From: an uncultured Eubacteriales bacterium
GTDB lineage: Bacteria > Bacillota > Clostridia > TANB77 > CAG-508
DNA: 64,000 nucleotides
Direction: 5' to 3'
Assembly: GCA_949840345.1 (NCBI GenBank)
Contig: CATKWX010000008.1
Location: forward strand, 1,801-65,800
The position numbers were made by a program, and so were the translations under genes. The notes under the pieces were generated by a model. That model had not been told where the DNA came from. It searched no databases and saw only the letters and a list, made by a program, of their open reading frames with translations. How positions within the stretch are numbered: position 1 is the stretch's first letter; the number at the start of each line of letters is the position of its first letter. Shown in pieces: positions 859-60,856 of this stretch.

Positions 859-3264
859 TTTCACTACAATATTATAAATTTTATTTTTTACATATATTTC
901 TTTTACAATTGTTTTTCCTTCTAATAGTGTTGCTACTTCTTTTTTTACTATTTCTTTTACAGCTGATTCTTCTGCGTCTAATGGAATTTTTACTGTTGCT
1001 TTTACTTTTCCATTGAATTGAACAGGAATTTCTATTTCATCATCAATTGTTTTTGCTTCATCATATTTTGGCCAAGTAGAATCTGATATTGTATGACCTG
1101 TGTTTAGTAATTCATATAATTCCTCTGTTATATGTGGTGCAAATGGATTTAGCAATTCTAAGAAAGTTTTAAATTCTGCTTTGTTTATTCTTTTTAGCTT
1201 ATAAAATTCATTAATCATTGTCATAAATGTTGCAATAGAAGTATTAAACTTCATTTCCTCAATATCGCTAGAAACTTTTTTAATAGCCTTATGCATCATT
1301 TTTTCAAATTCAGGAGAGTAAGAATCTCCATCTACTAATATTTCTTGTAGGTTCCAAACTCTTTCTAGGAATTTATAGCATCCTCTAATACTATCCATAG
1401 ACCAAGGTGCTGATTGATCAAATGGTCCTATAAACATTTCATAAACTCTAAAGGTATCTGCACCGAATTCATTAACTATATCGTCTGGATTTACAACATT
1501 ACCCCTAGATTTAGACATCTTTTCTCCATTACTTCCTAAAATCATACCATGTGATGTACGTTTTTGATAAGGTTCTTTTGTTGGAACTACACCTATATCG
1601 TATAAAAATTTATGCCAAAATCTTGAATATAGTAAGTGTAGAGTAGTGTGCTCCATACCACCGTTATACCAATCTACAGGAGACCAATATTCTAGTGCTT
1701 CCTTTGAAGCTAATGCGTTATCATTATGTGGGTCCATATAACGTAAGAAATACCAAGAAGATCCAGCCCATTGAGGCATTGTATCTGTTTCTCTTTTAGC
1801 ACTTCCACCACAGTGTGGACAAGTTGTGTTAATCCAATCTGTTTGTTTTGCTAAAGGAGATTCTCCATTTTCACCTGGTTCAAAGTCTTTTATATCTGGT
1901 AAAACAAGAGGTAATTCTTTTTCATCTAATGACACCCAACCACAATTTTGGCAATATACCATTGGAATTGGTTCACCCCAGTATCTTTGGCGAGAAAATA
2001 CCCAGTCACGAAGTTTGTAGTTTACTTTTCTTTTTGCAATTCCTTTTTCTTCTAGATAGTTTATACAAGTTTTAATAGCTTCTTTTACTCCTAATCCATT
2101 TAAGAATCCAGAATTAATCATTGTTCCAGAATATACATCTGTATGAGGTTTTTCCTGTACATTTTCGCCACCTGATACAACTTCTATTATTGGTAAATTA
2201 AATTTCTTTGCAAAATCCCAGTCTCTATCGTCATGGGCAGGAACAGCCATAATAGCACCAGTTCCATATGTAATTAATACATAATCTGAAATCCAAATAG
2301 GAATTTCTTTTCCTGTTAATGGATTTATTGCCGTTATTCCTTTTAATTCTACACCAGTTTTTTCTTTAGAAAGTTCAGCTCTTTCAAAATCTGATTTTAA
2401 TTTTGCTTGATTTTGATATTCCTTTACGTCATTTAAATTAGTAATTTTATCTTCAAATTTTTGAATCATAGGATGCTCTGGTGCGATAACCATATAAGTT
2501 GCACCAAATAAAGTGTCAGGTCTTGTTGTATATACAGTAAGTTCCTCTCCTTCAATTCCTGCAAGTTTAAACTTAACTTCAGCACCTTCGCTTCTACCAA
2601 TCCAATTTTTTTGTTGTAATTTAATTTTTTCTAAGAAATCTATATCGTCTAAATCGTTTATAAGTCTTTCAGCATATTCTGTAATTTTTAGCATCCATTG
2701 ACTTTTTTCCTTTTGAACAACAGGACTTCCGCATCTTTCGCAAACACCATTAACAACTTCTTCGTTTGCTAAACCTACTTTGCAACCTGTACAATAGTTT
2801 ATAGGCATAGTTGTTTTATATGCTAAACCGTGTTTAAATAATTGAATAAAAATCCATTGAGTCCATTTATAATAATTTGGGTCTGTTGTATTTATTTCAC
2901 GAGACCAGTCAAAAGAAAATCCTAGAGCCTTTAATTGCTCTCTAAAATGATCTACATTTTGTTTTGTAATTATACTTGGATGAACTTTATTTTTTATAGC
3001 GTAGTTTTCAGCTGGAAGACCGAAAGCATCAAATCCAATAGGGTATAAAACGTTAAATCCTTCTAATCTTTTCTTTCTTGCAATGATATCAAGTGCTGTA
3101 TAGCTACGAGGATGACCAACGTGGAGTCCTTGTCCTGATGGATATGGAAATTCTATTAATCCATACCACTTCTTCATAGAATAATCATTTTTTGCATTAA
3201 AAGTTCCTTCTTTTTCCCATTTTTGTTGCCATTTTTTTTCTATCTCTTTGAAATTATAAGACAT
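856..3264 (-). CDS. leuS: Leucyl-tRNA synthetase (class I aaRS; HVGH and KMSKS motifs).
   Basis: 802 aa ORF with 'HVGHPRSY' and 'KMSKSRGN' motifs and the LeuS editing-domain architecture. Confidence 0.95.
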
Positions 3265-3420
3265 AAGGCATCCTCCTTGTTTTAAAAAATAATGTAAACA
3301 TTATACTACAAAAATTAAATATAGTCTAGGGAAATGGGCAAATTAATTATTCTTTTAAAAAACATATTGCAAATACTTTAGGAGTGCAGGCTAACGCCCT
3401 AATGTACATATCTAATCAAA

Positions 3421-3462
3421 AAGAGATAGTAATTCGCAGTTACTATCTCTTTTTTTTGCTAT
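3421..3462 (-). terminator. Stem-loop with flanking A/T runs in the leuS 5' leader; a possible attenuator.
   Basis: AAAAAGAGATAGTAA-loop-TTACTATCTCTTTTTTTT, about 160 nt upstream of the leuS ATG on the minus strand. A T-box identity was not confirmed. Confidence 0.35.
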
Positions 3463-3608
3463 ATGACTTAACGCAGATTTAATCAAAGTCATTTCTAATC
3501 TAAGTATATTGTACTATTTTAAATTTAATTTGTCAATATGTTTACCTAAAAATTCCCTTGCAAATTGAAAATATATCATATATAATTTTGCTAAATGAGG
3601 TAGAGATT

Positions 3609-5663
3609 ATGCAAAAGAGTTTGTTGATTACGGAAAAGCCGAGTGTTGCAATGGAGTTTGCAAAGGTGTTGAAAATAAATACAACTAGAAAAGATGGATT
3701 TCTAGAGTCTGACAATTGGGTAGTTACTTGGTGTGTAGGTCATTTAGTTACAATGTCTTATCCAGAAAAGTATGACGAGAATTTAAAGTTTTGGAGATTG
3801 GATACGTTGCCTTTTATTCCAAGTGAATTTAAGTATGAAGTAATACCTGCCGTAGAAAAACAGTTTAATGTAGTTAAGGGATTATTAACAAGAGAAGATA
3901 TTTCTAAAATTTATGTATGTACTGACTCTGGTCGTGAAGGAGAATATATATATAGATTAGTAGACCAAATGGTTGGAGTTACTGGCAAAGAGAAAAGGCG
4001 TGTATGGATAGATTCTCAAACAGAAGAGGCGATTTTAAATGGAATAAAAGACGCAAAAGATTTATCTGAATATGATAGTATTTCAGCTTCTGCATATTTA
4101 AGAGCAAAAGAGGATTACTTAATAGGAATAAATTTTTCAAGGCTTCTTTCAATTATATATGGAAGAAGAGTTGCAAAGCAAATAAATGAGGATAAAGCTT
4201 CCATATCTGTTGGTAGAGTTATGACTTGCGTATTAGGTATGGTGGTATCAAGGGAAAGAGAAATTAGAAATTTTGTAAAAACAAAATATTATAAAATAAT
4301 AGGTGAATTTGGAAGCGACACATCTTCTTTTAAAGCAGAATGGAAGGTAACAGAAAAATCTAGTAAATATAATTCAATAGAATTATACAACGAAACAGGG
4401 TTTAAAAAAGAAGAAGATGCAAAGAAATTTATTTTATCATTAGCAGGTGTAGAAAATGATAACACTGTAGGGAACGAGACCAACGTCGTTCCTAAAAAGA
4501 ACGCTATTGTAACAGAAGTTAAAAAAAGCAAACAAAAAGAAAATCCACCACTACTTTTTAATCTTGCAGAATTACAAAACGAGTGCACAAAAAAGTTCAA
4601 AATAAAACCAGATGAAACATTAGAGGTTGTACAAAATTTATATGAGAAAAAATTAGTAACATATCCAAGAACTGATGCGAGAGTTTTGTCAACAGCAGTA
4701 GCAAAGGAAATTACAAAAAACTTAAATGGAATAAGCAGAGGGTTTCAAAACGAAGAAATAAAAACAATAATAAACAAAATGGTTAGTGAAAAATATTCAA
4801 CAAATCTAATAAAAACAAAATATGTAAATGATAGCAAAATAACAGACCACTATGCTATAATTCCAACAGGACAAGGGTATGAAAATTTTGATAAATTGCC
4901 TGAGCTACATAAGAATATATACATAAACATAGTAAAAAGATTTTTAAGCATATTTTATCCACCAGCAGAATTTAATAAAGTATCTGTAACATTAGAGGTA
5001 GAAAACGAGCAATTTAGTACTAGTGGTAAAGTTTGTACAAATTTGGGATATTTAGAAATATTAAAACAACCTAAAAATACTGTAGAGGAACAGACTAACG
5101 GTGCTTCACAAAATTCAGACGATACCGCAGGGAACGACGCCCCCGTCGTTCCGTTAAATACAGAAACACAAGAAGAAAACAATTTAGACATTTTAAATAC
5201 ATTAAAAAAAGGTCAAGAAATAAATGTAGTAAATTACGAGTTAAAGGAATCTGAAACTACACCACCTACAAGGTACAATTCTGGTTCTATAATTCTAGCA
5301 ATGGAAAACGCAGGAAAACTAATAGAAGATGACGAATTAAGAGAACAAATAAAAGGATGTGGAATTGGAACAAGTGCAACAAGGGCTGAAATTATAAAGA
5401 AGTTGGAAAGAATAAAATATATAGATATAAATAGTAAAACACAAATTATAACTCCAACAAACAAAGGAGAAATAATATTTGATGTAGTAAACTCATCAAT
5501 GCCAGATATGTTAAACCCAAAGCTAACTGCAAGTTGGGAAAAAGGACTAGAAATGGTCGCAAATAAAGAAATTCAGTCAGACGAGTTTATGGGAAAACTA
5601 GAAAACTACATAAAAACAAAAATAAATAAATTGGTTATCCCAGACGGAAGATTATCTATGTAG
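3609..5663 (+). CDS. topB: DNA topoisomerase III (type IA, Toprim domain). It carries two in-frame insertions of GC-rich palindromic repeat elements (~4461-4500 and ~5123-5153).
   Basis: N-terminal 'LLITEKPSVA...WCVGHL' Toprim/topoIA motifs. The ORF track starts at 3558, but the ATG with an RBS is at 3609. Confidence 0.85.
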   Translation: MQKSLLITEKPSVAMEFAKVLKINTTRKDGFLESDNWVVTWCVGHLVTMSYPEKYDENLKFWRLDTLPFIPSEFKYEVIPAVEKQFNVVKGLLTREDISKIYVCTDSGREGEYIYRLVDQMVGVTGKEKRRVWIDSQTEEAILNGIKDAKDLSEYDSISASAYLRAKEDYLIGINFSRLLSIIYGRRVAKQINEDKASISVGRVMTCVLGMVVSREREIRNFVKTKYYKIIGEFGSDTSSFKAEWKVTEKSSKYNSIELYNETGFKKEEDAKKFILSLAGVENDNTVGNETNVVPKKNAIVTEVKKSKQKENPPLLFNLAELQNECTKKFKIKPDETLEVVQNLYEKKLVTYPRTDARVLSTAVAKEITKNLNGISRGFQNEEIKTIINKMVSEKYSTNLIKTKYVNDSKITDHYAIIPTGQGYENFDKLPELHKNIYINIVKRFLSIFYPPAEFNKVSVTLEVENEQFSTSGKVCTNLGYLEILKQPKNTVEEQTNGASQNSDDTAGNDAPVVPLNTETQEENNLDILNTLKKGQEINVVNYELKESETTPPTRYNSGSIILAMENAGKLIEDDELREQIKGCGIGTSATRAEIIKKLERIKYIDINSKTQIITPTNKGEIIFDVVNSSMPDMLNPKLTASWEKGLEMVANKEIQSDEFMGKLENYIKTKINKLVIPDGRLSM
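4461..4500 (+). repeat. In-frame palindromic element (AACACTGTAGGGAACGAGACCAACGTCGTTCC) inside topB, translated as ...NTVGNETNVVPKK...
   Basis: Same head and arms as the intergenic copies at 47233 and 52071; GC-rich island in an AT-rich gene. Confidence 0.6.
5123..5153 (+). repeat. In-frame palindromic element (GCAGGGAACGACGCCCCCGTCGTTCCG) inside topB, translated as ...TAGNDAPVVPL...
   Basis: GGAACGAC...GTCGTTCC arms identical to the family. Confidence 0.55.
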
Positions 5664-5664
5664 T

Positions 5665-5734
5665 AGGTGCCGAATGAATAGTGAATAATGAAAAGTGAAG
5701 AATGATATGTAGGGGTCGGTCAAGACCGACCCGC
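5665..5734 (+). repeat. Composite repeat: AGTGAATA-type octamer repeats plus a TGTAGGGGTCGGTCAAGACCGACCC hairpin.
   Basis: Matches the family seen at 47150 and 34161. Confidence 0.5.
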
Positions 5735-5774
5735 AAATTGTTAACAGATTGTATAATATAATTAGGAGGCGTTT

Positions 5775-6368
5775 ATGAAAATTGGAGTAGACCTAGATGG
5801 TGTAATATTTGATTCTGAAAAACTATACAGAGTATGTTCAGAATTATATGAGGTTGTTGACTTAAAGAAAAATACAATTAGAGATAATAAAAGTCGTTTA
5901 TTTGAAGAACGATATGACTGGAATGAAATAGAGATGCAAAATTTCATAGACAAATATCATGAATATGTTGTAAGAAACGCAAACTTTATGCCTGGAGTAA
6001 AAGAGGTATTAGAGAAGCTAAAAAAAGATGGTAATGAATTAATACTAGTTACTGCAAGAGGTCAACAAGAAAGCAAATATATAAAAATTACAGAAGAAAT
6101 ATTTAAAGAAAATAATTTTGAAATTTTTGATAAATATTATTGGGGAATAACAGCTAAGGCAAAAATTTGCAAGGAAGAAAATATAGATATAATGATAGAC
6201 GATTACAATAGGAATTGTGAAGAACTTGCAAAGGCAAAAATAAAAACAATATATTTAAAAGACGCCCCATCATATGAGATAAAGGATAATGAGTATATTA
6301 AAACCTTATACAATTGGGGTGAAATATATAGGTTTATAAAGGAAGGAGAACAAAAATGCAAGGAATAG
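5775..6368 (+). CDS. HAD-superfamily hydrolase, NT5C-like 5'(3')-deoxyribonucleotidase family (DxDGV motif).
   Basis: 'MKIGVDLDGVIFD' N-terminus; about 197 aa. Confidence 0.5.
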   Translation: MKIGVDLDGVIFDSEKLYRVCSELYEVVDLKKNTIRDNKSRLFEERYDWNEIEMQNFIDKYHEYVVRNANFMPGVKEVLEKLKKDGNELILVTARGQQESKYIKITEEIFKENNFEIFDKYYWGITAKAKICKEENIDIMIDDYNRNCEELAKAKIKTIYLKDAPSYEIKDNEYIKTLYNWGEIYRFIKEGEQKCKE

Positions 6369-7516
6369 AAATATCAGAAGCAATAAAATACATTGGAGCA
6401 AGTGACAAAGAAACAAAAATATTCGAAAGTCAATATCATATGCCAAATGGTATGGCATATAATTCATATTTAATAAAAGATGAAAAAAATGTTGTAATGG
6501 ACACTGTAGATAGACATGTAACAGATAAATGGATTAGTAATTTAGAAAAAGAACTAAATGGAGAAAAAGTAGATTACCTAGTAGTTTCACATATGGAGCC
6601 AGACCATGCATTTAATATTGGGCTATTGGCAAATAAATACCCTAATATGAAAATAGTTGGAAACGCAATGACTTTTAGGATGTTAGCAAATTTTTTTGAT
6701 ATAGATATAGAAGAAAGAAAAATTGAAGTAAAAGAAGGAGATACTTTAAATATAGGTAGTCATACTCTACAATTCTTTATGGCACCAATGGTGCATTGGC
6801 CAGAGGTAATGGTAACTTATGAACAAACAGAAAAAGTATTGTTTTCAGCAGACGGATTTGGAAAATTTGGTGCAATAGATACAGATGAAGACTGGGACTG
6901 TGAAGCTAGAAGATATTATTTTGGAATTGTTGGAAAATACGGAGAACAAGTACAGGCTTTATTAAAAAAAGCATCTACTTTAGAAATTAACACAATTTGC
7001 CCATTACACGGACCAATATTAAAAGAAAATTTAGAGCATTATATTAATAAATATGATATATGGAGTAAATATGAACCAGAAGATGATGGAGTATTTATAG
7101 CAGTTGCATCAATTTATGGAAATACTATGGAGGTAGCAAAGAAACTAGGACAAATACTAGAACAAAAGGGAGTAAAGAAGGTTACAATAACAGATTTAGC
7201 AAGAGAAGATATGGCAGAAGCGGTAGAAGATGCATTTAGATATGGAAAAGTAATACTTGCAGCTTCCACATATAATATGAGTGTATTTCCACCAATGAGG
7301 CAGTTCTTAACGAATTTAAAAGAGAGAAATTATCAAAAAAGAAAAATAGGAATAATAGAAAATGGAACATGGGCACCAGCAGCCGGAAAGTGTATGAGAG
7401 AAATTCTAGAGCAAATGAAGGAAATAGAAATTATTGAACCAACAGTTACAATAAAATCAAAAATGAAAGAAGAGGACATTGTAAAACTAGAAATACTAGC
7501 TGAGGAAATATTGTAG
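6356..7516 (+). CDS. fprA: Flavodiiron protein (metallo-beta-lactamase-like di-iron domain plus flavodoxin domain; FprA / O2/NO reductase type).
   Basis: 'HMEPDHA' MBL-like motif and a C-terminal flavodoxin-like segment 'VFIAVASIYGNT'. Confidence 0.7.
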   Translation: MQGIEISEAIKYIGASDKETKIFESQYHMPNGMAYNSYLIKDEKNVVMDTVDRHVTDKWISNLEKELNGEKVDYLVVSHMEPDHAFNIGLLANKYPNMKIVGNAMTFRMLANFFDIDIEERKIEVKEGDTLNIGSHTLQFFMAPMVHWPEVMVTYEQTEKVLFSADGFGKFGAIDTDEDWDCEARRYYFGIVGKYGEQVQALLKKASTLEINTICPLHGPILKENLEHYINKYDIWSKYEPEDDGVFIAVASIYGNTMEVAKKLGQILEQKGVKKVTITDLAREDMAEAVEDAFRYGKVILAASTYNMSVFPPMRQFLTNLKERNYQKRKIGIIENGTWAPAAGKCMREILEQMKEIEIIEPTVTIKSKMKEEDIVKLEILAEEIL

Positions 7517-7554
7517 AAATATTACGAACGACCAATGGTTGTCGCGACAATAAA

Positions 7555-7680
7555 TATATTGCAAACTGTAGGGGCGGACGTCCCTGTCCGCCCGCAAAAC
7601 AGACAATAAACACAGAGTGAATAATTATTTGTAGGGGCACCGTTTGTGGGAATACCCGTGAGATGAGACACTACTGTGCC
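7555..7680 (+). repeat. Composite of two palindromic elements: type B (TGTAGGGGCGGACGTCCCTGTCCGCCCGC) and type D (TGTAGGGGCACCGTTTGTGGGAATACCCGTGAG...CACTACTGTGCCC).
   Basis: Both types recur elsewhere: B at 40409, D at 47275, 53342, 54669 and 56217. Confidence 0.6.
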
Positions 7681-7708
7681 CTTACTTGTTATAAATTTTT
7701 AAGGAGGA

Positions 7709-8077
7709 ATGAAAGATATGAAATTTAAAAAATGTATGAAGTGTGGAGCTCTTGTAAGAGTAGTTGAAGATTGCAAATGTGGAGAAATTACTTGTTGTGG
7801 AGAAAAAATGGTAGAGTTAATACCAAATTCAACAGATGCAGCAGTAGAAAAACACGTACCAGAATTAAGCATAGTAGATAATAAATTAGTTGCAAAAGTA
7901 AACCATGTAATGGATGAGGACCATTTTATAGAATGGATTTCATTTAAAAATGGAGATTTAGAAAAGACAGTATATTTCGAACCAGGAAAAACAGCAGAAG
8001 CAAGATTTTGCAGAACAAATGGAACAACAGTATATGCGTATTGCAATAAACATGGACTATGGAAAAGTGAGATGTAG
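7709..8077 (+). CDS. dfx: Desulfoferrodoxin / superoxide reductase (N-terminal desulforedoxin CxxC..CC domain plus SOR domain).
   Basis: 'CMKCGALV...CKCGEITCCGEKM' and 'EKHVP...YCNKHGLW'. The real start may be the second ATG (~7718). Confidence 0.8.
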   Translation: MKDMKFKKCMKCGALVRVVEDCKCGEITCCGEKMVELIPNSTDAAVEKHVPELSIVDNKLVAKVNHVMDEDHFIEWISFKNGDLEKTVYFEPGKTAEARFCRTNGTTVYAYCNKHGLWKSEM

Positions 8078-8154
8078 TTTGCAAATTATGTAAATTTATG
8101 ATAAAATATAAGTATGCACAGTAATGTGTAAATTATATTTTGGAGGAATACATT

Positions 8155-8451
8155 ATGAAAACAATCGAACGGATATGCGACGAGGTAAGAGAGGAGATTA
8201 AGAAGGATCCTAAAGCAGACTTTCATCTTGAAGATGCAACGGTAAACGCTCTGCTTGCGGAAGCATCAAAGATTGCTACAGAAGACGGAAAGATGGTTTT
8301 GACCTATGACGAAGAAGGGATAACGTTTGAATTCCAGTTTTGTGGGAAACTCTGCACTGAACCACCTTCGTTTACACGAATCGTAACTGTTCGCGGCAAA
8401 GGTTTGGATTATTATCAACAGTATCCAAGCTACAATGGAACAATTCTCTAA
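8155..8451 (+). CDS. Small hypothetical protein (~99 aa) with clearly higher GC than its surroundings; contains an in-frame CGG Arg codon.
   Basis: ORF-track entry 8140..8451 starts at TTG inside the RBS; the ATG is at ~8155. Local GC of about 45% versus about 28% in flanking sequence. Confidence 0.4.
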   Translation: MKTIERICDEVREEIKKDPKADFHLEDATVNALLAEASKIATEDGKMVLTYDEEGITFEFQFCGKLCTEPPSFTRIVTVRGKGLDYYQQYPSYNGTIL

Positions 8452-18103: not shown

Positions 18104-19678
18104 ATGGAAGAATTTACATTAAGGCTAAATAATTTCTTGTTTAATAGCGGAATATTAGGATTTTATAGAGTTCTATACAATGCTGAAAAGCAGAATTTAA
18201 TGGAAGCAAAGGGAAATTGCTTAATTGTTAAAAAATCAGCAATAGATAACTTTGAAGAAGATTATATAAATGCAATGATAGATACTTACGAAGAAGATAC
18301 TAAATGGTACACTATTGTATCTTTAAAGGAAACAGTTAGACAGATAGATCAAGATAGTAAGCAATTAGAAGGGATATATACACAAATAAAGAAAGCAGTA
18401 GAAAGTGCAAGTTATAAATCGGCTTATGAAAGCATACAAAAAAATTCAGAGGAAGATATATATGAAATACTAAAACAAATAAAAGCAGAGACTAATTTTG
18501 AAGCAAAGAAGAAATTAATTATAAAAATAATTGAACATTTAGAAAAAAATAAAAAAGTATATTGTATGAAAGATATAATTTATACAAAAATAAATTGCTT
18601 TTGGGAAAATGTATCTTTTTTAAATCGTTCTGCCAATAAAAAGGATATTAAAGAAGAATATAAGAAAACATTTGTATCGCCATTAAAAGCATATCTAAAT
18701 CAACCTAAAAAAAGTGATTATAGATGTATTGAATGTGGAAATGAAGTAAGCAAATCAGAAGCAAGTGGAATGAGTTGGTTAAAAGATGTTGGGGTTGATA
18801 TGAATAGAAAAAAATCTGGCTTTTGGAATTTCAATGAAGATATGTTTTTATGTCCAATCTGTAATTTGATATATTCATGTGTTCCATTAGGATTCTATAT
18901 GATTGGAAGCAATGGGATATTTATAAATAACAATGATAGTTTTATAGCACTAAAAAGAGATAATCAAATATACAATAGAGATGAAAAAATATCATTAGAA
19001 GGAGCGTACCACAAAACAATATATAATTATATAAATAGAATGAGTCAAATTGGTAATGAAAAGAAAGCAAAATTTGAACCTAAGAATATACAAGTAATAA
19101 AAAGAATTGGAAGTAAAGATAATCAATATTACGAGTTCAATATATTATCAAAAGATAAATTAGAAATTTTAAAAAAGGCATCAAATCAATTTGAATATTT
19201 AGTAAATTCTAATATATATCAAGAAGTGTTAACAAATTTAATTTATAATCAAAAACAATATAATTTAGTGGATAGACTATTAAAGCAAAAATATGAAATA
19301 AATTATGTAAAACCAATTTTAAATATTGAAGCTATTAATATGGAAGGAGGAAGAAAAATGGAAGATAGAAAAAAACTTATTGATGATGTAATAAAAGCGG
19401 GAGAAAGTTTACAAAAGTATTTTTTTGTAAAGAAGGAAAATAACAATAAATTAAAGGCTTATGAATATAGACTTCAAAATGCTTTGAAAGCAAATAAAGT
19501 AGAGGAATTCTTAAAACAATTTACTATGTTTTATGGCAGCTTAAACGATTTTCCAATGCCTAATGGAGAGGGTATATTAAAGTTAATAGAAGATCCAGAT
19601 TATTTTAGATTATTAGGATATTCTTATGTATATGGATTAGGAAAGAGAATAGAAGGGGGAAATAAAAATGAAGAATAA
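18104..19678 (+). CDS. cas8b: Cas8b (Cst1) large subunit, type I-B.
   Basis: ~525 aa; position; Zn-finger-like 'CIECGN...CPICN'. Confidence 0.7.
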   Translation: MEEFTLRLNNFLFNSGILGFYRVLYNAEKQNLMEAKGNCLIVKKSAIDNFEEDYINAMIDTYEEDTKWYTIVSLKETVRQIDQDSKQLEGIYTQIKKAVESASYKSAYESIQKNSEEDIYEILKQIKAETNFEAKKKLIIKIIEHLEKNKKVYCMKDIIYTKINCFWENVSFLNRSANKKDIKEEYKKTFVSPLKAYLNQPKKSDYRCIECGNEVSKSEASGMSWLKDVGVDMNRKKSGFWNFNEDMFLCPICNLIYSCVPLGFYMIGSNGIFINNNDSFIALKRDNQIYNRDEKISLEGAYHKTIYNYINRMSQIGNEKKAKFEPKNIQVIKRIGSKDNQYYEFNILSKDKLEILKKASNQFEYLVNSNIYQEVLTNLIYNQKQYNLVDRLLKQKYEINYVKPILNIEAINMEGGRKMEDRKKLIDDVIKAGESLQKYFFVKKENNNKLKAYEYRLQNALKANKVEEFLKQFTMFYGSLNDFPMPNGEGILKLIEDPDYFRLLGYSYVYGLGKRIEGGNKNEE

Positions 19679-20531
19679 GGGATTAACATTATCAATGATA
19701 ATAGAAACAGAAAGTGCAAATTATGGAGAAGGGTATAACAACATTACTACACTAAAGAAATTAACTAGAGGAGATGGAAATACATACACATATATTTCAA
19801 GACAAGCATTAAGATATAATATAGTAGAACAAATGAAATGTGATAATACACCAGTGGAAGCAATAGGCTCAGGAGAAAAGAAAGTAATACAATTTCATCC
19901 AGATAGTACAATTGCAGAATATCCTGAAATTGACTTTTTTGGATACATGAAAACAAAAGGAGGAGATTCTGCTACAACAAGAAATGCAGTTGTTAGGCTA
20001 AGTAATGCAATTTCTTTAGAGGAATTTGAAGCGGATACAGATTTTTTAACTAATATGGGACTAGCTAAAAGAATAGATGCAAATAACTCTATTGCACAAA
20101 GTGAAATCCACAAATCATATTATGCATATACTATAACAATTGATTTAGATAAAGTTGGAGTGGATAAAGATATTGAAATAAGCGAAGAAGAAAAAAAGAA
20201 AAGAGTAAAAGAGCTGCTAAAAACAATTGAATTTTTATATCGTGATATAAAAGGAAGAAGAGAGAACTTATCACCTATTTTTGCAATTGGTGGAGTTTAT
20301 GATAGAAAAAATCCATTTTTTGAAAATAGAATTCAAGTAAAGAGTAATAAATTAAATACAAGTATGTTAAAAGAAATAATTAATGCTGACGAAGATATAA
20401 GTAAAAACACAAAAGTTGGATATATAGATGGAAAATTTGAAAATAATAGTGAAGTAAAAGAAGAACTACAAACAATGAAGATAAGTGAATTTTTCGATGG
20501 GTTAATAAAAAAAGTAGAGGAGGAATGCTAG
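19668..20531 (+). CDS. cas7: Cas7 (Cst2/DevR) backbone subunit.
   Basis: 287 aa; 'ETESANYGEGYNNITTLKK' typical Cas7-I-B N-terminus. Confidence 0.8.
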   Translation: MKNKGLTLSMIIETESANYGEGYNNITTLKKLTRGDGNTYTYISRQALRYNIVEQMKCDNTPVEAIGSGEKKVIQFHPDSTIAEYPEIDFFGYMKTKGGDSATTRNAVVRLSNAISLEEFEADTDFLTNMGLAKRIDANNSIAQSEIHKSYYAYTITIDLDKVGVDKDIEISEEEKKKRVKELLKTIEFLYRDIKGRRENLSPIFAIGGVYDRKNPFFENRIQVKSNKLNTSMLKEIINADEDISKNTKVGYIDGKFENNSEVKEELQTMKISEFFDGLIKKVEEEC

Positions 20532-21251
<720 letters not shown>

Positions 21252-21263
21252 AAGGAGATTTTA

Positions 21264-23456
21264 ATGGAAAACAAAGCATTAGCAAAAACTGAAAAAGAAA
21301 AAACAATTAAGCAACACACAGATGACTTATTATATCAATATGATATTTTAAAAATTTTGTATAAAGATATTATGGATGAAGATGATTGGCAACTGCTAAA
21401 AGAAGCAGTTGTCCATCATGATTTAGGTAAAATAAACTCTAAATTTCAAAATAAACTATATAAAATATTAAAATACAACGAATTTTTGCCAGAGTTGGAT
21501 GATAATGAAGAAGTACCACATAATTTTTTAAGTCCAGTTTTTATTGATACTAAAGAATTTGAGAAAAAGTATGGATTAACAAAAACTAAAATACTAGTAA
21601 GTGCTGTTTATTATCACCATAATAGAGATGAAAAGCTAATAAGTAAAAATGATATTGAAGATATAAAAAAACAAGCTAAATATATTGGTATGGATAAAGA
21701 TAAAATAAATCCATACTTCAGGAAGTACTTATTAAGCCCGAACTGTGAGGAAGATATTGAAATACTTGAAAGCAGAGAATATATACAAATAAAAGGTTTA
21801 TTAAATAGGCTAGATTATGTAGCAAGTCTTGATAAGAAAGGTGTAAATGTAGAAGAAGAAGTAACACAAGATGGAGAAACAGTAGCAGATATAATAAAAG
21901 GAAAATTTAAAGATTCTTTTAGAGAAGTTCAAACGTATATGTTAGAAAATGAAGAAAATAATTTAGTGGTTGTTTCGTATACCGGAAGCGGGAAAACAGA
22001 AGCAGCGTTATTATGGATAAGAAATAATAAGGCATTTTATACATTACCACTGAAAGTTTCTATAAATGCTATGTACAAAAGAATTAATAATAATATTAAA
22101 TATAACAAAGCGTTGTTATTACATTCTGATGCGTATTCATACTATAAAAATGAAAATGAATTAATAAAGTATGATAGAGCTAAGAGGATGTCTGCACCAC
22201 TTATTATAACTACAGTAGATCAAATATTTAAGATTGCTTTTAAATATACAGGATATGAAGAAATTCTGTCTACATTAAGCTATTCTAAAATAGTTATAGA
22301 TGAAATTCAAATGTACTCTCCAGAATTATTGGCTTATATCTTGTTGGGATTAAGTATGATAACAAAAGTAGGTGGAAAATTTGCAATTATTACAGCTACT
22401 TTTCCACCAGTTTTATATAATATTATGGACTATTTAAAAATACCTTATGTAAAACAAATACAAGAATTTAAACCTCATATTATGAATAGACACAAAATTC
22501 AAATTAGTAATGAAGAAGAATTTAATTTTCAAAAGATTAGAGAAATATCAAAACATAAAAAAGTGTTAATAATTGCAAATACTGTAAAAAGAGCACAGGC
22601 TATATATGAATGTTTAGCTGAAAGTAATGTACATTTATTACACAGTCATTATATAAAAGAAGATAGAGATATTTTAGAAAACAATATTTTAGAATTTGGT
22701 AATAGAGATAAGAATGACGAAAGTGGAATTTGGGTGTCTACACAGATAGTAGAGGCTAGTTTAGATATTGACTTTGATATATTATTTACAGAAATGTGTT
22801 CGATTGATAGTTTATTTCAAAGAATGGGAAGAGTATTTAGAAAAAGATTATACCAAAGTGAAGAACCTAATGTAATTATTTTAAATAATAGAAATGGTGT
22901 TCCATATATAATAGATTCAGATATATACGATTATACATTAAGAGAGCTAGAAAAGTATAATAACAAAAATATTTCAGAAACCGATAAACAAAATATGATA
23001 CGAAACATATTTAGTTTAGAAAAGAATAAAGAATTGAAAGATTCTAAATACTATAAAAAGATAAGAAAAACAATAGAAATGATGGAGGATATAAGACCTA
23101 GCCAAGCGGATAAGGAAGAAATAAGTGATAAATTCAGAGATATCCAAAATGTTTCATTAATACCAGATAATATATATGAAAATCTATATAGTGAAGGAAA
23201 AATAGATATATGGAATAATATATTGAAATCTGAAACAAGTTACTTAAGTGAAAAAATACAAGTTAAAGATGAAATAAGAAAATATGTAGTAAATGTGAGA
23301 TGGAGTAGAAAGTTAGACATAGGCAAGGATGAATTGTTTTATAAAGGAAGTAACATATATAGAACTAGATATACTTATGAATTTAATAAAGATTCAAAAA
23401 GAGGTTTAGGGTTAATAATGAAAAATATGCACAATACAGGATATTTTGATGAATAG
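21264..23456 (+). CDS. cas3: Cas3 (N-terminal HD nuclease plus SF2 helicase).
   Basis: HD motifs 'VVHHDLGK' and 'YYHHNRD'; Walker A 'SYTGSGKTEAAL'; 'VIDEIQMY'. Confidence 0.85.
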   Translation: MENKALAKTEKEKTIKQHTDDLLYQYDILKILYKDIMDEDDWQLLKEAVVHHDLGKINSKFQNKLYKILKYNEFLPELDDNEEVPHNFLSPVFIDTKEFEKKYGLTKTKILVSAVYYHHNRDEKLISKNDIEDIKKQAKYIGMDKDKINPYFRKYLLSPNCEEDIEILESREYIQIKGLLNRLDYVASLDKKGVNVEEEVTQDGETVADIIKGKFKDSFREVQTYMLENEENNLVVVSYTGSGKTEAALLWIRNNKAFYTLPLKVSINAMYKRINNNIKYNKALLLHSDAYSYYKNENELIKYDRAKRMSAPLIITTVDQIFKIAFKYTGYEEILSTLSYSKIVIDEIQMYSPELLAYILLGLSMITKVGGKFAIITATFPPVLYNIMDYLKIPYVKQIQEFKPHIMNRHKIQISNEEEFNFQKIREISKHKKVLIIANTVKRAQAIYECLAESNVHLLHSHYIKEDRDILENNILEFGNRDKNDESGIWVSTQIVEASLDIDFDILFTEMCSIDSLFQRMGRVFRKRLYQSEEPNVIILNNRNGVPYIIDSDIYDYTLRELEKYNNKNISETDKQNMIRNIFSLEKNKELKDSKYYKKIRKTIEMMEDIRPSQADKEEISDKFRDIQNVSLIPDNIYENLYSEGKIDIWNNILKSETSYLSEKIQVKDEIRKYVVNVRWSRKLDIGKDELFYKGSNIYRTRYTYEFNKDSKRGLGLIMKNMHNTGYFDE

Positions 23457-23465
23457 GAGGTTGCG

Positions 23466-23957
23466 ATGAAAAGTGTAACAGGTTTGATGTTCTACTATTA
23501 CTTTATCTGTCAAAGAAAGTTATGGTATTTTGCAAATGAAATAAATATGGAACAAAATAGTGAACTTGTATCTATAGGAAAAGTGTTAGATGAGACAAGC
23601 TATTCTAGAGAAAAAAAGAACATAATGATAGATAATACAATAAATATAGATTTTATAAAGAATGGAGCAGTTTTGCACGAAGTGAAGAAAACTAAATCTA
23701 TAGAAGAAGCTGGAATTTGGCAGATAAAATATTATATGTATTATTTAATGAAAAAGGGTGTAAACACAATTGAAGCTAAAATAGATTTCCCATTATTAAG
23801 AGAAACCAAAGAGGTAATACTTGAAGATGAAGATATAAAGATAATAGAAAATGTAATAAAAAGCATAGAGGAAATAGTATCAAACGATAAAATACCACAA
23901 GTTATAAATGATAAGATTTGCAAAAAGTGTGCATATTATGATTTGTATTATGTATAG
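23466..23957 (+). CDS. cas4: Cas4 (RecB-like nuclease with Fe-S cysteines).
   Basis: N-terminal Cys plus C-terminal 'CKKCAYYDLYY'. Confidence 0.8.
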   Translation: MKSVTGLMFYYYFICQRKLWYFANEINMEQNSELVSIGKVLDETSYSREKKNIMIDNTINIDFIKNGAVLHEVKKTKSIEEAGIWQIKYYMYYLMKKGVNTIEAKIDFPLLRETKEVILEDEDIKIIENVIKSIEEIVSNDKIPQVINDKICKKCAYYDLYYV

Positions 23958-23966
23958 GAGAAGGGT

Positions 23967-24959
23967 ATGAAACAATCATATTATTTATATAAAAGCGGAA
24001 GAATTCAAAGAAAAGATAATACTTTAGAAATTGTATATAAAGATAATACAAAGAAGTCAATACCAGTAGAAAGAGTTGACGATATATATGTAATGACAGA
24101 GTTTGACTTTAATACAAGTTTATTGAATTTTTTAGGTAAGTATGGAATTTCTGTGCACTTTTTTAATTACTATGGGTTTTATACAGGAACTTACTACCCC
24201 AAAGAGGGATTAGTTTCTGGAAAGCTTTTAGTAAAGCAAGTAGAGCACTATAGTGATTTAAATAAGAGACTAAAAATTGCTAAAAGTTTTATAGATTCTG
24301 CGTCATACAATATCTATAGAAATTTAGTTTATTATAATAATAGAGGAAAAGACTTAACACAATACATGGAAGAAATAGAACATTTAAGGAAGCAAATACC
24401 ATTATGCAATGATGTGCAAGAACTAATGGGAATAGAAGGAAATATTAGAAAAACTTATTATGATTCTTGGAATATTATTATAAATCAAGATATAGATTTT
24501 GAAAAAAGAATAAAAAATCCTCCTGACAACGCTATTAACTCACTTATATCTTATGTGAATACAATTATTTATACTAGAACATTAAGTGAGATATATAAGA
24601 CACAATTGAATCCTACTATAAGTTATTTACATGAACCTTCAGAAAGGCGATTTTCTCTTTGTTTAGATGTTTCAGAAATATTTAAACCAATATTAGCAGA
24701 CAGATTAATTTTTTCTATGTTAAATAAAAAACAAATAACAGAAAAGGATTTTGAAGAAGGATTAAATTTTTTATATATAAAAGAAAATGCTAGAAAAGAA
24801 ATTACAAAAGAGATAGATAAAAGACTTCAAACAACTATAAAACATAGAAAACTAGATAGAGAAGTATCGTATGAATACTTAATAAGATTAGAATTGTATA
24901 AATTAATAAAGTATTTTACAGAGGATATTCCATACGAAGGGTTTAAAATATGGTGGTAG
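23967..24959 (+). CDS. cas1: Cas1 integrase.
   Basis: 330 aa; Cas1 fold motifs; position. Confidence 0.85.
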   Translation: MKQSYYLYKSGRIQRKDNTLEIVYKDNTKKSIPVERVDDIYVMTEFDFNTSLLNFLGKYGISVHFFNYYGFYTGTYYPKEGLVSGKLLVKQVEHYSDLNKRLKIAKSFIDSASYNIYRNLVYYNNRGKDLTQYMEEIEHLRKQIPLCNDVQELMGIEGNIRKTYYDSWNIIINQDIDFEKRIKNPPDNAINSLISYVNTIIYTRTLSEIYKTQLNPTISYLHEPSERRFSLCLDVSEIFKPILADRLIFSMLNKKQITEKDFEEGLNFLYIKENARKEITKEIDKRLQTTIKHRKLDREVSYEYLIRLELYKLIKYFTEDIPYEGFKIWW

Positions 24960-25460: not shown

Positions 25461-27309
25461 GTATTAATTTAAATATAGTAGAATGTAAATGTATTTTATG
25501 ATTTAGAAGACAATAAAACACGTCAGTATTAATTTAAATATAGTAGAATGTAAATTCAAATTGATTATACATATTTTCTATAGTTAAGCGTTGTATTAAT
25601 TTAAATATAGTAGAATGTAAATGTAGAATTAAATGGCTCTGGAGCAATGGATTTAACTGGTATTAATTTAAATATAGTAGAATGTAAATTATGGAACACA
25701 TATAAAGGGCAGAAAGATATATAAGGTATTAATTTAAATATAGTAGAATGTAAATTTGAAATATAATAGATGTTTAAACTTAATAGAACGTATTAATTTA
25801 AATATAGTAGAATGTAAATTCATTTTTCCAGTATCCAAGTTTTACTTCGTCTATATCAGTATTAATTTAAATATAGTAGAATGTAAATTCATAAATGTGG
25901 CTCTTTCTAATTTCAATTACTTTTAAGTATTAATTTAAATATAGTAGAATGTAAATTTTTGAGATAGTTTCGATGCCAGTCGGACTATCTCTGTATTAAT
26001 TTAAATATAGTAGAATGTAAATAAATCTACTATAGAAGAACCTAGTTTGTCAAAATCTGTATTAATTTAAATATAGTAGAATGTAAATATATTGTTATCT
26101 GTTTTAGAATTTAATTCTGATAGTGTTTCGTATTAATTTAAATATAGTAGAATGTAAATACAAAATCACCAACTTCAACAGTATCTCCAACTTCTGTATT
26201 AATTTAAATATAGTAGAATGTAAATAATTTTGACTTTAAAGCTTCTTGCAAAACTTGAGAGTATTAATTTAAATATAGTAGAATGTAAATAAAGATAATG
26301 GCTTTCCGTCAGTCCATAAAGTATCTTGGTATTAATTTAAATATAGTAGAATGTAAATCGGAGCAACAAGTCAGAAATCACAACGGAGTAAATCAGTATT
26401 AATTTAAATATAGTAGAATGTAAATTGTTTAATTATAAAATAGAGAACAGCTATAAAAAAGTATTAATTTAAATATAGTAGAATGTAAATATGGATTCCA
26501 TATTCATACTCACCGCCTTTCGTTGCGTATTAATTTAAATATAGTAGAATGTAAATTCAAACAATCTAATGTTAATGTCTTGTAGTGGTTCTGTATTAAT
26601 TTAAATATAGTAGAATGTAAATAAACTAACATTAGAACAAGGCACAAGTAAGAATAAAGTATTAATTTAAATATAGTAGAATGTAAATTTATAAATATCC
26701 AACCAGTTAGATACTCTTTTTTCGTATTAATTTAAATATAGTAGAATGTAAATAGAATTTGTAAATAACCATACTCTTGATATAACAGGAGTATTAATTT
26801 AAATATAGTAGAATGTAAATTTAGAATATCCTTTTCCTATTATCAAATCTGCATCGGTATTAATTTAAATATAGTAGAATGTAAATCCGAAAAATAGTAT
26901 ATCACGGGTTGTGAAAAAAATCAGTATTAATTTAACTATAGTAGAATGTAAATGTAAATATAACCTTTTTAAGTAAAGATAATTTGCTATGTATTAATCT
27001 AAATAAAGTAGAATGTAAATGTGTTTGGAATAGTTTTTATTCCGCAATGAGCCAAGCAAGTATTAATCTAAATAAAGTAGAATGTAAATATATATCAGGA
27101 AAAAGATCTAGCAAAGAAGAATATTAGTATTAATCTAAATATAGTAGAATGTAAATAATTTATTTTTTAATAGATTATAGTCTGCTGATGTAAGTATTAA
27201 TTTAAATATAGTAGAATGTAAATGAGTCTTGTGTTCCAAATTTTTCGCTTTGTGTATCAGTATTAATTTAAATATAGTAGAATGTATATTAATTACACAC
27301 ATAATTCCC
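25461..27309 (+). CRISPR. CRISPR array 2, about 29 repeats. Repeat GTATTAATTTAAATATAGTAGAATGTAAAT (I-B type, ends ATGTAAAT). The last ~6 repeats are variants (GTATTAATCTAAATAAAG...), marking the trailer.
   Basis: 65-66 bp periodicity; the repeat differs at 2 positions from the array-1 repeat. Confidence 0.95.
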
Positions 27310-53038: not shown

Positions 53039-53323
53039 ATGTCTGAAATAAACTCAACCACACCTTGGCAAGACCTAACAATAGGTGGAAATATATATGA
53101 AGCTGGAAATGCAAAAAATTTTAAAACAGGAGACTGGAGAAGTGTAAAGCCAATATACTTATCTGAAAAATGTAAACAATGTGGTTTATGTTTTCCAGTT
53201 TGCCCAGATGATGCAATACCAGTAAATAAAGAACAAAAAAGAGAAGATTTTAATTACGATATGTGTAAAGGTTGCGGAGTATGTGCAAAAGTATGCCCAT
53301 TTGGTGCAATCGAAATGCAGTAA
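53039..53323 (+). CDS. porD: 2-oxoacid:ferredoxin oxidoreductase delta subunit (2x[4Fe-4S]).
   Basis: Two CxxCxxCxxxCP motifs. Confidence 0.8.
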   Translation: MSEINSTTPWQDLTIGGNIYEAGNAKNFKTGDWRSVKPIYLSEKCKQCGLCFPVCPDDAIPVNKEQKREDFNYDMCKGCGVCAKVCPFGAIEMQ

Positions 53324-53330
53324 ATATATA

Positions 53331-53462
53331 TTGCAAACATTGTAGGGGCACCGTTTGCGGGAATACCCTGTAGGGAACGACGCCCTCGTCGTTCCGCAGA
53401 CACCACTGTGCCCTTGTTAATGAATAGTGAAGAGTACAAAATTCTTCCAATTTTGAAAGGAG
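53331..53462 (+). repeat. Nested repeat: a type-D element (GTAGGGGCACCGTTTGCGGGAATACCC|...|GCAGACACCACTGTGCCC) interrupted by a complete type-A element (TGTAGGGAACGACGCCCTCGTCGTTCC), followed by AGTGAA repeats plus hairpin plus RBS.
   Basis: Comparison with uninterrupted D copies at 47275 and 54669. Confidence 0.6.
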
Positions 53463-54668: not shown

Positions 54669-54720
54669 TGTAGGGGCACCGTTTGTGGGAATACCCGTTA
54701 GGTTACGACACCACTGTGCC
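54669..54720 (+). repeat. Type-D palindromic element.
   Basis: GTAGGGGCACCGTTTGTGGGAATACCCGTTAGGTTACGACACCACTGTGCCC. Confidence 0.6.
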
Positions 54721-54746
54721 CAGGATAAAAGGAGGAGAAAAATAAA

Positions 54747-55701
54747 ATGGCATATAATCATAAAGAAATAATTGCAAACCGTCCATCTAGATTTACATCT
54801 GGGCATAGAATGTGTGCAGGATGTGGTGCACCACCAGTAGCAAGAATGGTATTAAGAGCATTAAAACCAGAAGACCATGCAGTAATAACAGGTGCAACAG
54901 GTTGTATGGAAGTTTCAACATTTATATATCCATATACAGCGTGGACAGATTCATTTATACACACAGCATTTGAATGTGCAGGTGCAACTTGTTCAGGAGT
55001 TGAAGCTGCATATAAATCAATGAAGGCTCAAGGAAAATTGCCACAAGATAAAGATACAAAGTTTATAGCATTTGGAGGAGACCGGAGGAACTTACGATAT
55101 AGGAATACAAAGTTTATCTGGTGCAATGGAAAGAGGACACGATATGGTATATGTATGCTATGATAACGGAGCATATATGAATACTGGTATTCAAAGATCT
55201 TCTGCAACACCAAAATTTGCAGATACAACAACAACACCAGCAGGAACAAAAGTGCCTGGAAAAATGCAATCAAGAAAAGATTTAACTTTAATAATGGCAA
55301 ATCATCATTTACCATATGTTGCACAAACTGCTGCTATAATGAACTTTAAAGATTTATATGAAAAATCTGAAAAAGCAATATATACAAAAGGAGCATGTTT
55401 CCTAAATGTATTAGCACCATGCCCAAGAGGTTGGGGATATCCAACAGAAATGCTAATGGAAATAAATAAGCTTGCAGTTGAAACTTGCTATTGGCCATTA
55501 TATGAAGTAGAAAATGGAAAGTATAAAATAACCTATAAACCAGCAAAGAAATTGCCAATAGAAGAGTTCTTAAAACCACAAAAAAGATTTAAACATATGT
55601 TTAAACCAGGAAATGAATGGATGATAGAAGAATTCCAAAAAGAAGTAGATGCAAGATGGGAAGAACTATTAAGATTAGAAGAAATAACAAATAAGGAATA
55701 A
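54747..55701 (+). pseudogene. porB: 2-oxoacid:ferredoxin oxidoreductase beta subunit (TPP-binding). The frame breaks at an in-frame CGG (~55083); the +1 frame restores 'FGGDGGTYDIGIQ'.
   Basis: Track ORFs 54747-55163 and 55072-55701 join seamlessly with a +1 shift after 'GAC CGG'. Confidence 0.7.
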
Positions 55702-59449: not shown

Positions 59450-59530
59450 ATGCGGGCGGACTTAGAGGCCCGCCACTACAAAAAACATATTGCAAACTTT
59501 GTAGGGGTCAATGCTCACATTGACCCGTTT
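59450..59530 (+). repeat. Two palindromic elements (GCGGGCGGACTTAGAGGCCCGCC; CATATTGCAAACTTTGTAGGGGTCAATGCTCACATTGACCC) in the rodA 5' region.
   Basis: Family members. Confidence 0.55.
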
Positions 59531-60676: not shown

Positions 60677-60856
60677 TAGTTTGAAAAATAATTAGCATAT
60701 TGTGTCGTTATTTAAAACTAGAAAATCCTCGATGTACAAATGTACACCTCCGGTATTTCTAGTTTTAAATGCCTAGCACTATACTAATTCTTTTTCAAAC
60801 TATTAAAAAAATAATCAGCATATTGCAAACATTGTAGAAAGGAATTTGAACACACA

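Follow-up and report, generated by a model that had tools for sequence, protein, structure and literature searches.

The gene for DNA topoisomerase III (topB) in a 64-kb stretch of the genome of an uncultured gut Clostridia bacterium (contig CATKWX010000008.1; the whole stretch is called the window below) holds short, GC-rich palindromic repeats at two sites within its reading frame. The explanation that best accounts for the observations jointly, and that we regard as very likely, is that these segments are GTAG-tagged repetitive extragenic palindromic (REP) elements, carried as tolerated, translated passengers, with a REP-associated Y1 HUH tyrosine transposase (RAYT) as the agent of their spread and exchange. 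REPs of the GTAG class are defined by a 5' GTAG beside a short GC-rich stem-loop, by the existence of several stem subfamilies and by a position just after open reading frames (ORFs) (Di Nocera et al. 2013, PMC3733652). The host is one of the uncultured gut Clostridia close to Clostridium sp. CAG:245/492/508, a lineage outside Clostridium proper; the term clostridial, applied to it in a first-pass annotation of the window, should not be taken to mean Clostridium itself.

Repeat-derived segments in topB

The topB ORF (3609-5663, + strand) encodes a protein of 684 amino acids with Pfam Toprim and Topoisom_bac domains, whose best match in the Protein Data Bank is to the E. coli Topo III structures (E = 2e-67). 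Because dN/dS is low (0.05-0.19 in element-bearing lineages and 0.05-0.06 in element-free ones, indicating purifying selection) and both the catalytic TYPRTD and the Toprim DSGREGE motifs are intact, topB of the element-bearing lineage looks, as far as its sequence can tell, like a functional gene.

Two type-A elements are present in frame inside this ORF, as the first-pass annotation had claimed. The site-1 REP (TGTAGGGAACGAGACCAACGTCGTTCC, 27 nt, 4466-4492, + strand) has a TGTAG head and a 7-bp GC-rich stem and is read as (T)VGNETNVVP, the frame GTA-GGG giving Val-Gly; as single-stranded DNA it forms a hairpin of -6.1 kcal/mol (z = -2.1) in which GTAG is unpaired. The site-2 REP (CGCAGGGAACGACGCCCCCGTCGTTCC, 27 nt, 5126-5152, + strand) has a perfect 9-bp stem, is read as (T)AGNDAPVVP and forms a hairpin of -10.7 kcal/mol (z = -4.5), likewise with an unpaired head. 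The proposed reading of the TGTAGGG head as Val/Ala-Gly is borne out by TVGNETNVVP at the first site and TAGNDAPVVP at the second. In the window the site-2 head is GCAG, mutated from the GTAG that strains L081 and L083 show there, and this copy is probably immobile by now. A further type-A unit at 5081-5108 (+ strand; TGTAGAGGAACAGACTAACGGTGCTTCA, compare the intact TGTAGGGAACAGACCAACGTCGTTCC at 47233 and 52070) is decayed: it is read as TVEEQTNGAS, has lost its hairpin and folds no better than shuffled sequence. At its position sister strain L081 retains GTAGGG and L082 carries an intact unit. Across the window the hairpin pattern has 5 matches, with 0.00 expected, and TGTAGGG has 23, with 2.6 expected, every one of them on the + strand.

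Other repeat DNA accompanies these units. An AT-rich module 5' of the site-1 REP (GTAGAAAATGATAACAC, 4449-4465, + strand) resembles intergenic GTGAATAATGA modules (compare 5676-5707); variant forms of it occur in every occupied site-1 allele but that of L001, it is missing from empty alleles, and it entered site 1 together with the REP. At the 3' end of the gene a repeat module (..GGAAGATTATCTATGTAGTAGGTGCCGAATGAATAGTGAATAATGAA.., 5643-5707, + strand), which recurs at ~51330-51380 and ~63240-63290, gives topB its last six codons (DGRLSM) and its stop and extends into the 3' flank. The TopB proteins of most relatives end in the ancestral ..VIPM*, and the end found in the window (5643-5663) is repeat-derived. 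An extragenic REP (TGTAGGGGTCGGTCAAGACCGACCCGCA, 5708-5735, + strand) follows 45 nt past the topB stop. Its orthologue in the closest species, L001, directly abuts topB, where the stop codon is the TAG of the GTAG head itself (L001:4995-5035, ..CCA ATG TAG GGGTCGG..), the ancestral end being ATG TAA or ATG TAG.

As predicted from the ORF, the TopB peptides across the two inserts read ...DNTVGNETNVVPKK... and ...DDTAGNDAPVVPLN...; the protein gains 16 residues at site 1 and ~22-26 at site 2, and the insertions are thus not length-neutral, as had been supposed. In an AlphaFold2 model of TopB (72 homologues, mean pLDDT 72) all three repeat-derived segments (residues 283-290, 488-524 and 677-684) are predicted to be coil of pLDDT < 50 with confident elements on either side, in keeping with the earlier suggestion that both inserts lie in loops.

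Insertion at the two sites

Orthologues were taken from 80 topB loci of other species, all from metagenome-assembled genomes (MAGs) of uncultured gut or rumen Clostridia and including those of Clostridium sp. CAG:245, CAG:492 and CAG:508 at 71-72% identity. Site 1 is unoccupied in 78 of the 80. Compared with the empty alleles L002 and L004, L001 (the closest species, 93% identical) has precisely 27 nt more at this site, namely the element itself; the target is not duplicated, no flanking base is doubled, and the boundary is ambiguous by one T. The features of miniature inverted-repeat transposable elements, i.e. insertion-sequence (IS) terminal inverted repeats and a target-site duplication, are absent, the whole element being one hairpin with an asymmetric GTAG head. 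Site 2 lies within a hypervariable linker, whose length and composition vary among many species. The closest element-free relatives (P0011, P0014-P0020) have no unit there and a short, acidic linker, and among TopB variants the site changes in 9-residue steps. This alignment shows the topB inserts to be lineage-specific insertions in two disordered loops or linkers, as the first-pass annotation had anticipated, and no distant orthologue was found to carry homologous peptides encoded by DNA that is not repeat-like.

It is conceivable in principle that such segments reflect the usual variation of linkers between lineages, or errors of assembly, and happen to resemble repeats, and the variability of the site-2 linker in length and composition would accord with this. 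We regard it as extremely improbable and effectively refuted, given that the topB inserts are identical or near-identical to intergenic copies elsewhere in the window, that the inserted repeat DNA has ~70% GC in a genome of ~30% GC around topB, and that the same repeats are found at the same topB sites in at least seven independent assemblies.

Exchange of variants between strains

A protein search yielded a graded series of TopB sequences, 85-98% identical, and DNA was obtained for six of these variants. TopB is 88-98% identical between strains, yet the REP variants at the two sites differ, being single or in tandem pairs, and some sites are empty. Site 1 is occupied by GGGAACGAGACCAACGTCGTTCC, by GGGAACGACGCCCTCGTCGTTCC or by decayed GGGGCGAGCATTGCTCGTCC-like and GGGGCGGAC-like units, or is empty; site 2 holds a single unit or a tandem pair (A+B in L082, B+A in L001), or is empty. 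Identical site-2 flanks enclose GGGAACGATGCCCCCGTCGTTCC in L084 and GGGGTCGACGCCCCTGTCGACCC in L086. The L085 and L086 alleles, with GGGGTCGACGC(T/C)CCTGTCGACCC between the same flanks as in L084, differ from the latter by AA to GT in the 5' arm, paired with TT to AC in the 3' arm, which turns Asn..Val into Val..Asp in the peptide. Among 16 distinct 26-nt variants, 96% of the stem cells pair and double-sided changes are seen in 6 of 8 pairs; none of 500 shuffles attains that level, and slid controls collapse. Across the variants it is the DNA palindrome that is conserved or regenerated, and the peptide would be its passenger.

The exchange of variants at one site could have come about by re-insertion beside a resident unit or by gene conversion, and a REP nested in another REP at 53341-53413 provides an example of insertion into a resident unit. 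Exchange at one codon position among near-identical strains is not described in the survey of Di Nocera et al. (PMC3733652).

The same stems also bear on a different explanation, namely that the hairpins in topB are selected as cis-acting DNA or RNA structures, such as an mRNA stabiliser, a pause site or a site for a DNA-topology protein. That perfect 9-bp intragenic stems are kept as residues change, and that compensatory arms occur between identical flanks, would agree with a cis function, as would the clustering of intragenic REPs in DNA replication and repair genes and the view that extragenic REPs are RNA elements (Di Nocera 2013, PMC3733652). We consider this explanation quite unlikely, however, since occupancy is polymorphic among strains of 88-98% identity with some alleles empty, one topB copy has decayed past folding, the same elements are also found in a frameshifted glucan synthase gene (below), and intact stems are equally explained by freshly transposed replacement copies.

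Retention of the reading frame

The units at the topB sites, of types A and B, are 27 nt or nine codons long, and because they change in 27-nt steps their insertion at these sites always keeps the frame. Of the three phases of a sense-oriented unit, one yields a TAG stop (xxG-TAG) and two are open. All six intragenic sense-orientation copies in the window, the decayed 5081 copy included, are in the GTA-GGG phase, as are the copies in sister strains, and the probability that all six copies would fall by chance in this one of the two open phases is ~0.016. Under the mechanism that we favour, in which REPs are tolerated passengers, they would insert widely and those that persist would be the ones in tolerant surface loops, read as Val-Gly-...-Pro, surviving intragenic copies avoiding the Arg-rich alternative phase (CRERDQRRS).

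The REP family in the window

Within the 64 kb, ~26 units combine a (T/C)GTAGGG head with a hairpin; 25 of the units lie on the + strand and a single one on the - strand. Of all the units, 21 are intergenic, all between + strand genes and mostly 8-190 nt past a stop codon, and the 5 intact intragenic units are all in the GTA-codon phase. The units are 26-27 nt long, with GC-rich stems of 6-9 bp and folding z scores of -1.7 to -4.5. In the head of the 16 distinct variants G1, A3 and G4 are invariant and T2 is kept in 15, and the head is unpaired in every fold; several stem subfamilies, types A and B among the short units, keep their pairing. This genome and its closest relatives hold many copies of the family and neighbouring species hardly any, with 5 copies in the 8 kb of L001 against 1 in the topB loci of the remaining 79 species.

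Inverted doublets, a feature of REP doublets forming hairpins (REPINs) and of bacterial interspersed mosaic elements (BIMEs), do not characterise the family here. The only - strand REP of the window (34117-34139) forms a single head-to-head pair with a + strand copy at 34160-34187, and tandem pairs run head-to-tail.

A longer GTAG subtype is represented by four copies on the + strand, at 7630-7681 (TGTAGGGGCACCGTTTGTGGGAATACCC...ACTGTGCCC), 47274-47326, 53341-53413 (its loop enclosing a type-A REP, 53369-53395) and 54669-54721. The computed fold of this subtype is no better than that of shuffles, and only a GGGCAC/GTGCCC closing stem was noted. A search of the whole window against Rfam gave no match at gathering thresholds and, at E <= 1 near 47050-47400, only chance matches far below threshold; the GTAG elements are no curated RNA family.

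Link to RAYT transposases

The GTAG elements appear to belong to REP/RAYT systems because REPs and RAYT genes are arranged together in L028, in L222 and in L174 and L217. In L028, whose TopB is 74% identical, TGTAGGGGCATCGTTTGTGAAAATACCCGTGAGACATGACACCACTGTGCCC (994-1045) precedes a gene for a 153-aa RAYT (1061-1522) that is followed by an inverted copy of the repeat (1524-1575), and the arms align with all four long GTAG copies of the window (7630, 47274, 53341 and 54669). This RAYT scores 66.8 bits on the NCBIfam model REP_Tyr_transpos and 20.4 bits on the IS200 model, which is below the cut-off of 80 but specific. L222 has the same REP-RAYT-REP unit as L028, with a 152-aa RAYT, and carries GTAGGGGCGAGCATTGCTCGTCC, identical to the copy at 52114 in the window; two further places of its RAYT protein, L223 and L224, have the same gene neighbourhood. 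Two low-GC metagenome contigs, L174 and L217, have a type-A unit immediately upstream of a small RAYT gene. Scanning metagenomes for the type-A pattern gave more than 120 contigs of 27-66% GC, mostly from unrelated organisms and usually with +/- pairs, few of them from this clade; the type-A motif is thus widespread.

By analogy with characterised systems, the RAYT would recognise the GTAG hairpin on single-stranded DNA and would spread and exchange the elements. The E. coli enzyme TnpA-REP is reported to bind and cleave the GTAG hairpin as single-stranded DNA. A more far-reaching reading, which is possible although we hold it to be doubtful, is that a strand-specific REP/RAYT system of low-GC gut Clostridia places single GTAG hairpins in the lagging-strand template and comes back to the same positions, substituting time and again one family member for another, amounting to an in-frame cassette exchange that would rewrite surface loops of essential proteins, covering TopB and even the RAYT itself (L109, L193) within the time of strain divergence.

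Genuine repeats could alternatively have been spread without a REP-specific RAYT, either by a 248-aa Y1 transposase flanked by terminal inverted repeats or by recombination or gene conversion alone. The 248-aa Y1_Tnp gene is found ~45 nt upstream of topB in L083 (852-1762) and L084 (3439-4349), is absent from the window and scores 73.6 bits on REP_Tyr_transpos; a small RAYT was seen in none of the clade's own loci, and conversion could give different variants between shared flanks. We nevertheless think this unlikely. The 248-aa gene is flanked by perfect inverted 28-bp TGCACATTGGGGACGTAAAAAATGTGCA hairpins that are devoid of GTAG and absent from the window, and it occurs in species in which GTAG REPs are missing from 8-12 kb (L087-L091); it was accordingly rejected as the mobiliser and is treated as a separate mobile element, i.e. 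a minor rival. A canonical REP-RAYT-REP unit with the long GTAG subtype of the window exists in relatives, and conversion leaves a clean de novo 27-nt insertion unexplained.

Further Y1 genes were noted in the course of this comparison. Gut Clostridia homologues of the 248-aa gene have tandem reiterated GCACATTGGGGACG half-sites at their ends, and a solo hairpin lies at L081:7933. Small RAYT genes in two low-GC metagenome contigs (L109:1351-1917 and L193:981-1598) carry an in-frame inverted GTAG REP pair just past the HUH motif (..PNHIHGIVIINDVGNDLRVVPNVDKVRHIGRTLQ..), i.e. a RAYT gene decorated with its own kind of repeat, and the RAYT gene of L174 holds one REP in an alternative phase (CRGGVLLHP). 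In L219, L220 and L221 (8001-9235) a small RAYT has a mutated HUH motif (PNHIYII), and a copy of the 246-aa Y1 element in the opposite orientation interrupts its 3' end; the segment adjoins a phage-type integrase, and its orientation with respect to the flanking DNA is reversed between assemblies.

Strand orientation

Cumulative GC skew climbs through the entire window, and the GTAG strand is the G-rich strand. Because the G-rich GTAG strand has the sequence of the lagging-strand template, the 25:1 orientation fits insertion into that template. In this superfamily, Y1 transposases work at the fork on the template of the lagging strand (PMC6006769), and the near-uniform G-rich-strand orientation would, if the REPs behave like their IS200/IS605 relatives, follow from strand-specific insertion at the replication fork. 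REPs in divergent promoter regions are still + oriented (L081 17675, L082 7782). Because of these copies and of the antisense copies in the phage contig L098, the uniform orientation would not be mere sense-strand selection, and as to replication versus transcription as the cause of the strand bias both sets of copies are only suggestive.

The contig L098 (IMG/VR, 32% GC) encodes a replication initiator, a large terminase and a portal protein. Its ten GTAG REPs in 9 kb (1851-8196) occupy nearly each intergenic gap, with one lying within an ORF, where the reverse reading is GEHCSPLQ.

Weighing the evidence

Several points weigh against the explanation that the topB segments are translated passengers spread by a RAYT. 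Translation of the inserts is deduced from the integrity of the ORF and from selection, and the compensatory arm changes are ambiguous, since they could reflect element replacement, gene conversion or hairpin selection. No Y1 or RAYT gene was found in the window, either by eye or by tblastn with five Y1 proteins (run on the window and on all loci), and the link of this genome to a RAYT is indirect, running through relatives. The REP-RAYT-REP units (REPtrons) that were found hold the long subtype, adjacency of type A and RAYT being seen only in unrelated metagenome contigs, and all RAYT matches, with 67-75 bits on the REP model and ~20 bits on the IS200 model, fall slightly below the curated NCBIfam cut-off of 80. 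The Y1 gene that adjoins topB in two sister strains is the 248-aa one with non-GTAG flanks.

The orientation of the repeats is open to similar objections. The 25:1 ratio is confounded with gene direction in the window, where the + strand accounts for 86% of the coding sequence and the 4 of 46 genes on the - strand have no REP. In L098 the C-rich strand carries all ten REPs, antisense to the genes, a pattern that fits a strand-specific process and not a simple G-rich-strand rule.

Copies in a glucan synthase gene

Three REPs lie on the + strand within a cyclic-glucan-synthase fragment: a type-A unit at 39784-39810, read as IVGNETSVVP and matching a 19-aa gap in the homologues P0361 and P0365; CGTAGGGGCGGACGTCCCTGTCCGCCC at 40408-40434, read as IVGADVPVRP, whose 26-nt core GTAGGGGCGGACGTCCCTGTCCGCCC recurs unchanged in the intergenic copy at 7568; and TGTAGGGGTCGCGTCCTTAGGCGACCC at 40567-40593, read as VVGVASLGDP. 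The latter two also fall at gaps in homologues. All three copies share one phase and coincide with gaps in homologues of 53% identity (BLASTP). The cyclic beta-1,2-glucan synthase/GH94 gene (38002-46228) is, in this genome, broken up into five or more successive ORFs with a +1 frameshift from each to the next, and its homologues are mostly single proteins of up to ~2,900 aa; the gene is either a pseudogene or carries assembly indels. The earlier statement that what is seen in topB happens three times in the glucan synthase accordingly holds as regards the three copies, their single phase and the gaps in homologues, but the claim that they are translated is doubtful because the gene is frameshifted.

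Associated modules and neighbouring genes

Many intergenic REP heads in the window have directly 5' of them, with 1-2 nt between, the motif (A)AACATATTGCAAAC, which precedes no intragenic head. It is found at 7547-7566, 31845-31865, 34138-34159, 47127-47148, 51292-51312, 53320-53340, 59478-59499 and 62002-62020, with decayed copies at 3355-3375 and 60811-60835, and may represent one component of a composite unit, a favoured target or a promoter-like TTGCAA box. Two further modules, CTACGAAG-N4-GTGCCGA(A/G)(T/C)GAAGAATGAATAGTGAATAATGAA and AAAAATCG(N4-5)GATTTTTGA, occur in mosaics with REPs at 5664-5707, 51325-51400 and 63240-63300, and also at 31975-32000, 47210-47232 and 61870-61900. REPs and modules thus form BIME-like mosaics that are uniform in orientation.

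A CRISPR-Cas locus at 17376-24959 encodes Cas6, Cas7/DevR, Cas3 and Cas1 (by Pfam) and is taken from its gene order to be of type I-B. The arrays that follow the Cas genes (25659-26226) consist of a ~30-nt AT-rich repeat (..ATTAATTTAAATATAGTAGAATGTAAAT) with a period of 64-66 nt. A CRISPR origin of the GTAG elements was considered and rejected, the repeat of the array at ~25659-26226 being AT-rich and unrelated to them.

A single-module nonribosomal peptide synthetase with a terminal reductase (27412-31758; Condensation, AMP-binding, PP-binding and NAD_binding_4 domains) is directly followed by REPs at 31866 and 31935. At 54747-55701 two overlapping ORFs of 138 and 209 aa, with a Pfam match (TPP_enzyme_C) in the second only, may be the frameshift-split halves of one gene, which by eye we take to resemble the beta subunit of a 2-oxoacid:ferredoxin oxidoreductase.

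Relation to known systems

The Rickettsia palindromic element (RPE) RPE-1 measures about 100-150 bp. The first-pass annotation had described the topB elements as RPE-like, and the behaviour is indeed common to both: RPEs too are selfish palindromic repeats that insert in frame and add a surface peptide whilst the gene stays functional (Ogata et al. 2000, cited in PMC3733652). The elements themselves are GTAG-class REPs and not RPEs, however. RPE-1 is larger, and RPE-4 and RPE-6 of R. conorii are CGTC-tagged REPs without a dedicated transposase (PMC3733652), whereas the elements here are 27 nt long, GTAG-tagged and RAYT-linked. Nor is in-frame insertion known mainly from Rickettsia, as had been thought, since Di Nocera et al. 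(2013, PMC3733652) list in-frame REPs from several phyla.

The closest resemblance is to the GTAG REPs of that survey, which share the unpaired 5' GTAG and stem-loop, the subfamilies, the position mostly downstream of ORFs, the association with RAYTs and the occurrence of some in-frame intragenic copies (PMC3733652). Intragenic GTAG and CGTC REPs are found there in several species, with the GTAG count highest in Opitutus terrae and uvrA of Thioalkalivibrio as another example, and many lie in replication or repair genes (uvrA, uvrB, dnaE2, ligase; PMC3733652), a pattern that a topoisomerase as host fits. The systems differ in arrangement: dimers in opposite orientation predominate in that survey, whereas 25 of the 26 units here are singletons or tandems on one strand. 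GTAG repeats are listed for Proteobacteria, Cyanobacteria, Chloroflexi and the PVC group, with Firmicutes unmentioned (PMC3733652). In a literature search of limited coverage we found no report of in-frame GTAG REPs in this bacterial group in that paper or in the other REP/RAYT papers searched, and the word Firmicutes is mentioned nowhere in them.

The REPIN-RAYT systems of Pseudomonas and E. coli (Bertels & Rainey 2011; Nunvar 2010; Ton-Hoang 2012; Messing 2012) likewise have units made of GTAG and a hairpin, and a single-copy Y1 HUH transposase gene between inverted REPs, the REPtron arrangement seen here in L028 and L222. They differ in that the mobile unit is an inverted REP doublet, of which this window has one head-to-head pair, and in that their hosts are Gammaproteobacteria of higher GC.

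With IS200/IS605 elements the REPs share the lack of target duplication and, by the proposed mechanism, would share a Y1 HUH transposase, hairpin recognition and insertion that is strand-specific, with the lagging-strand template as the target (PMC6006769); that strand specificity matches the uniform orientation seen here. Unlike the REPs, IS200/IS605 elements have distinct left and right subterminal hairpins on one strand and usually tnpA/tnpB, and the RAYTs here reach ~20 bits on the IS200 model. Such elements are also much longer than 27 nt.

Significance

In-frame REPs are already known elsewhere; what is distinctive here is the Firmicute host, the head-to-tail arrangement on a single strand and the unusually fast exchange at fixed codons at the level of strains. 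A practical consequence is that GC-rich 27-nt islands in AT-rich MAGs yield lineage-specific 'VG...P' segments and even stop codons, and can mislead analyses of orthology, domains and selection. The findings extend the GTAG-REP/RAYT system, and with it the in-frame decoration of proteins, to an uncultured, low-GC gut Firmicute lineage. The near-total orientation on a single strand offers a simpler setting than inverted-pair REPINs for asking whether RAYTs act at the replication fork. Lastly, the empty, single, double, swapped and decayed alleles in TopB proteins that are 88-98% identical make up a natural time series, by which rates of REP insertion, replacement and decay become measurable from metagenomes and selection on the hairpin can be tested directly against selection on the peptide.

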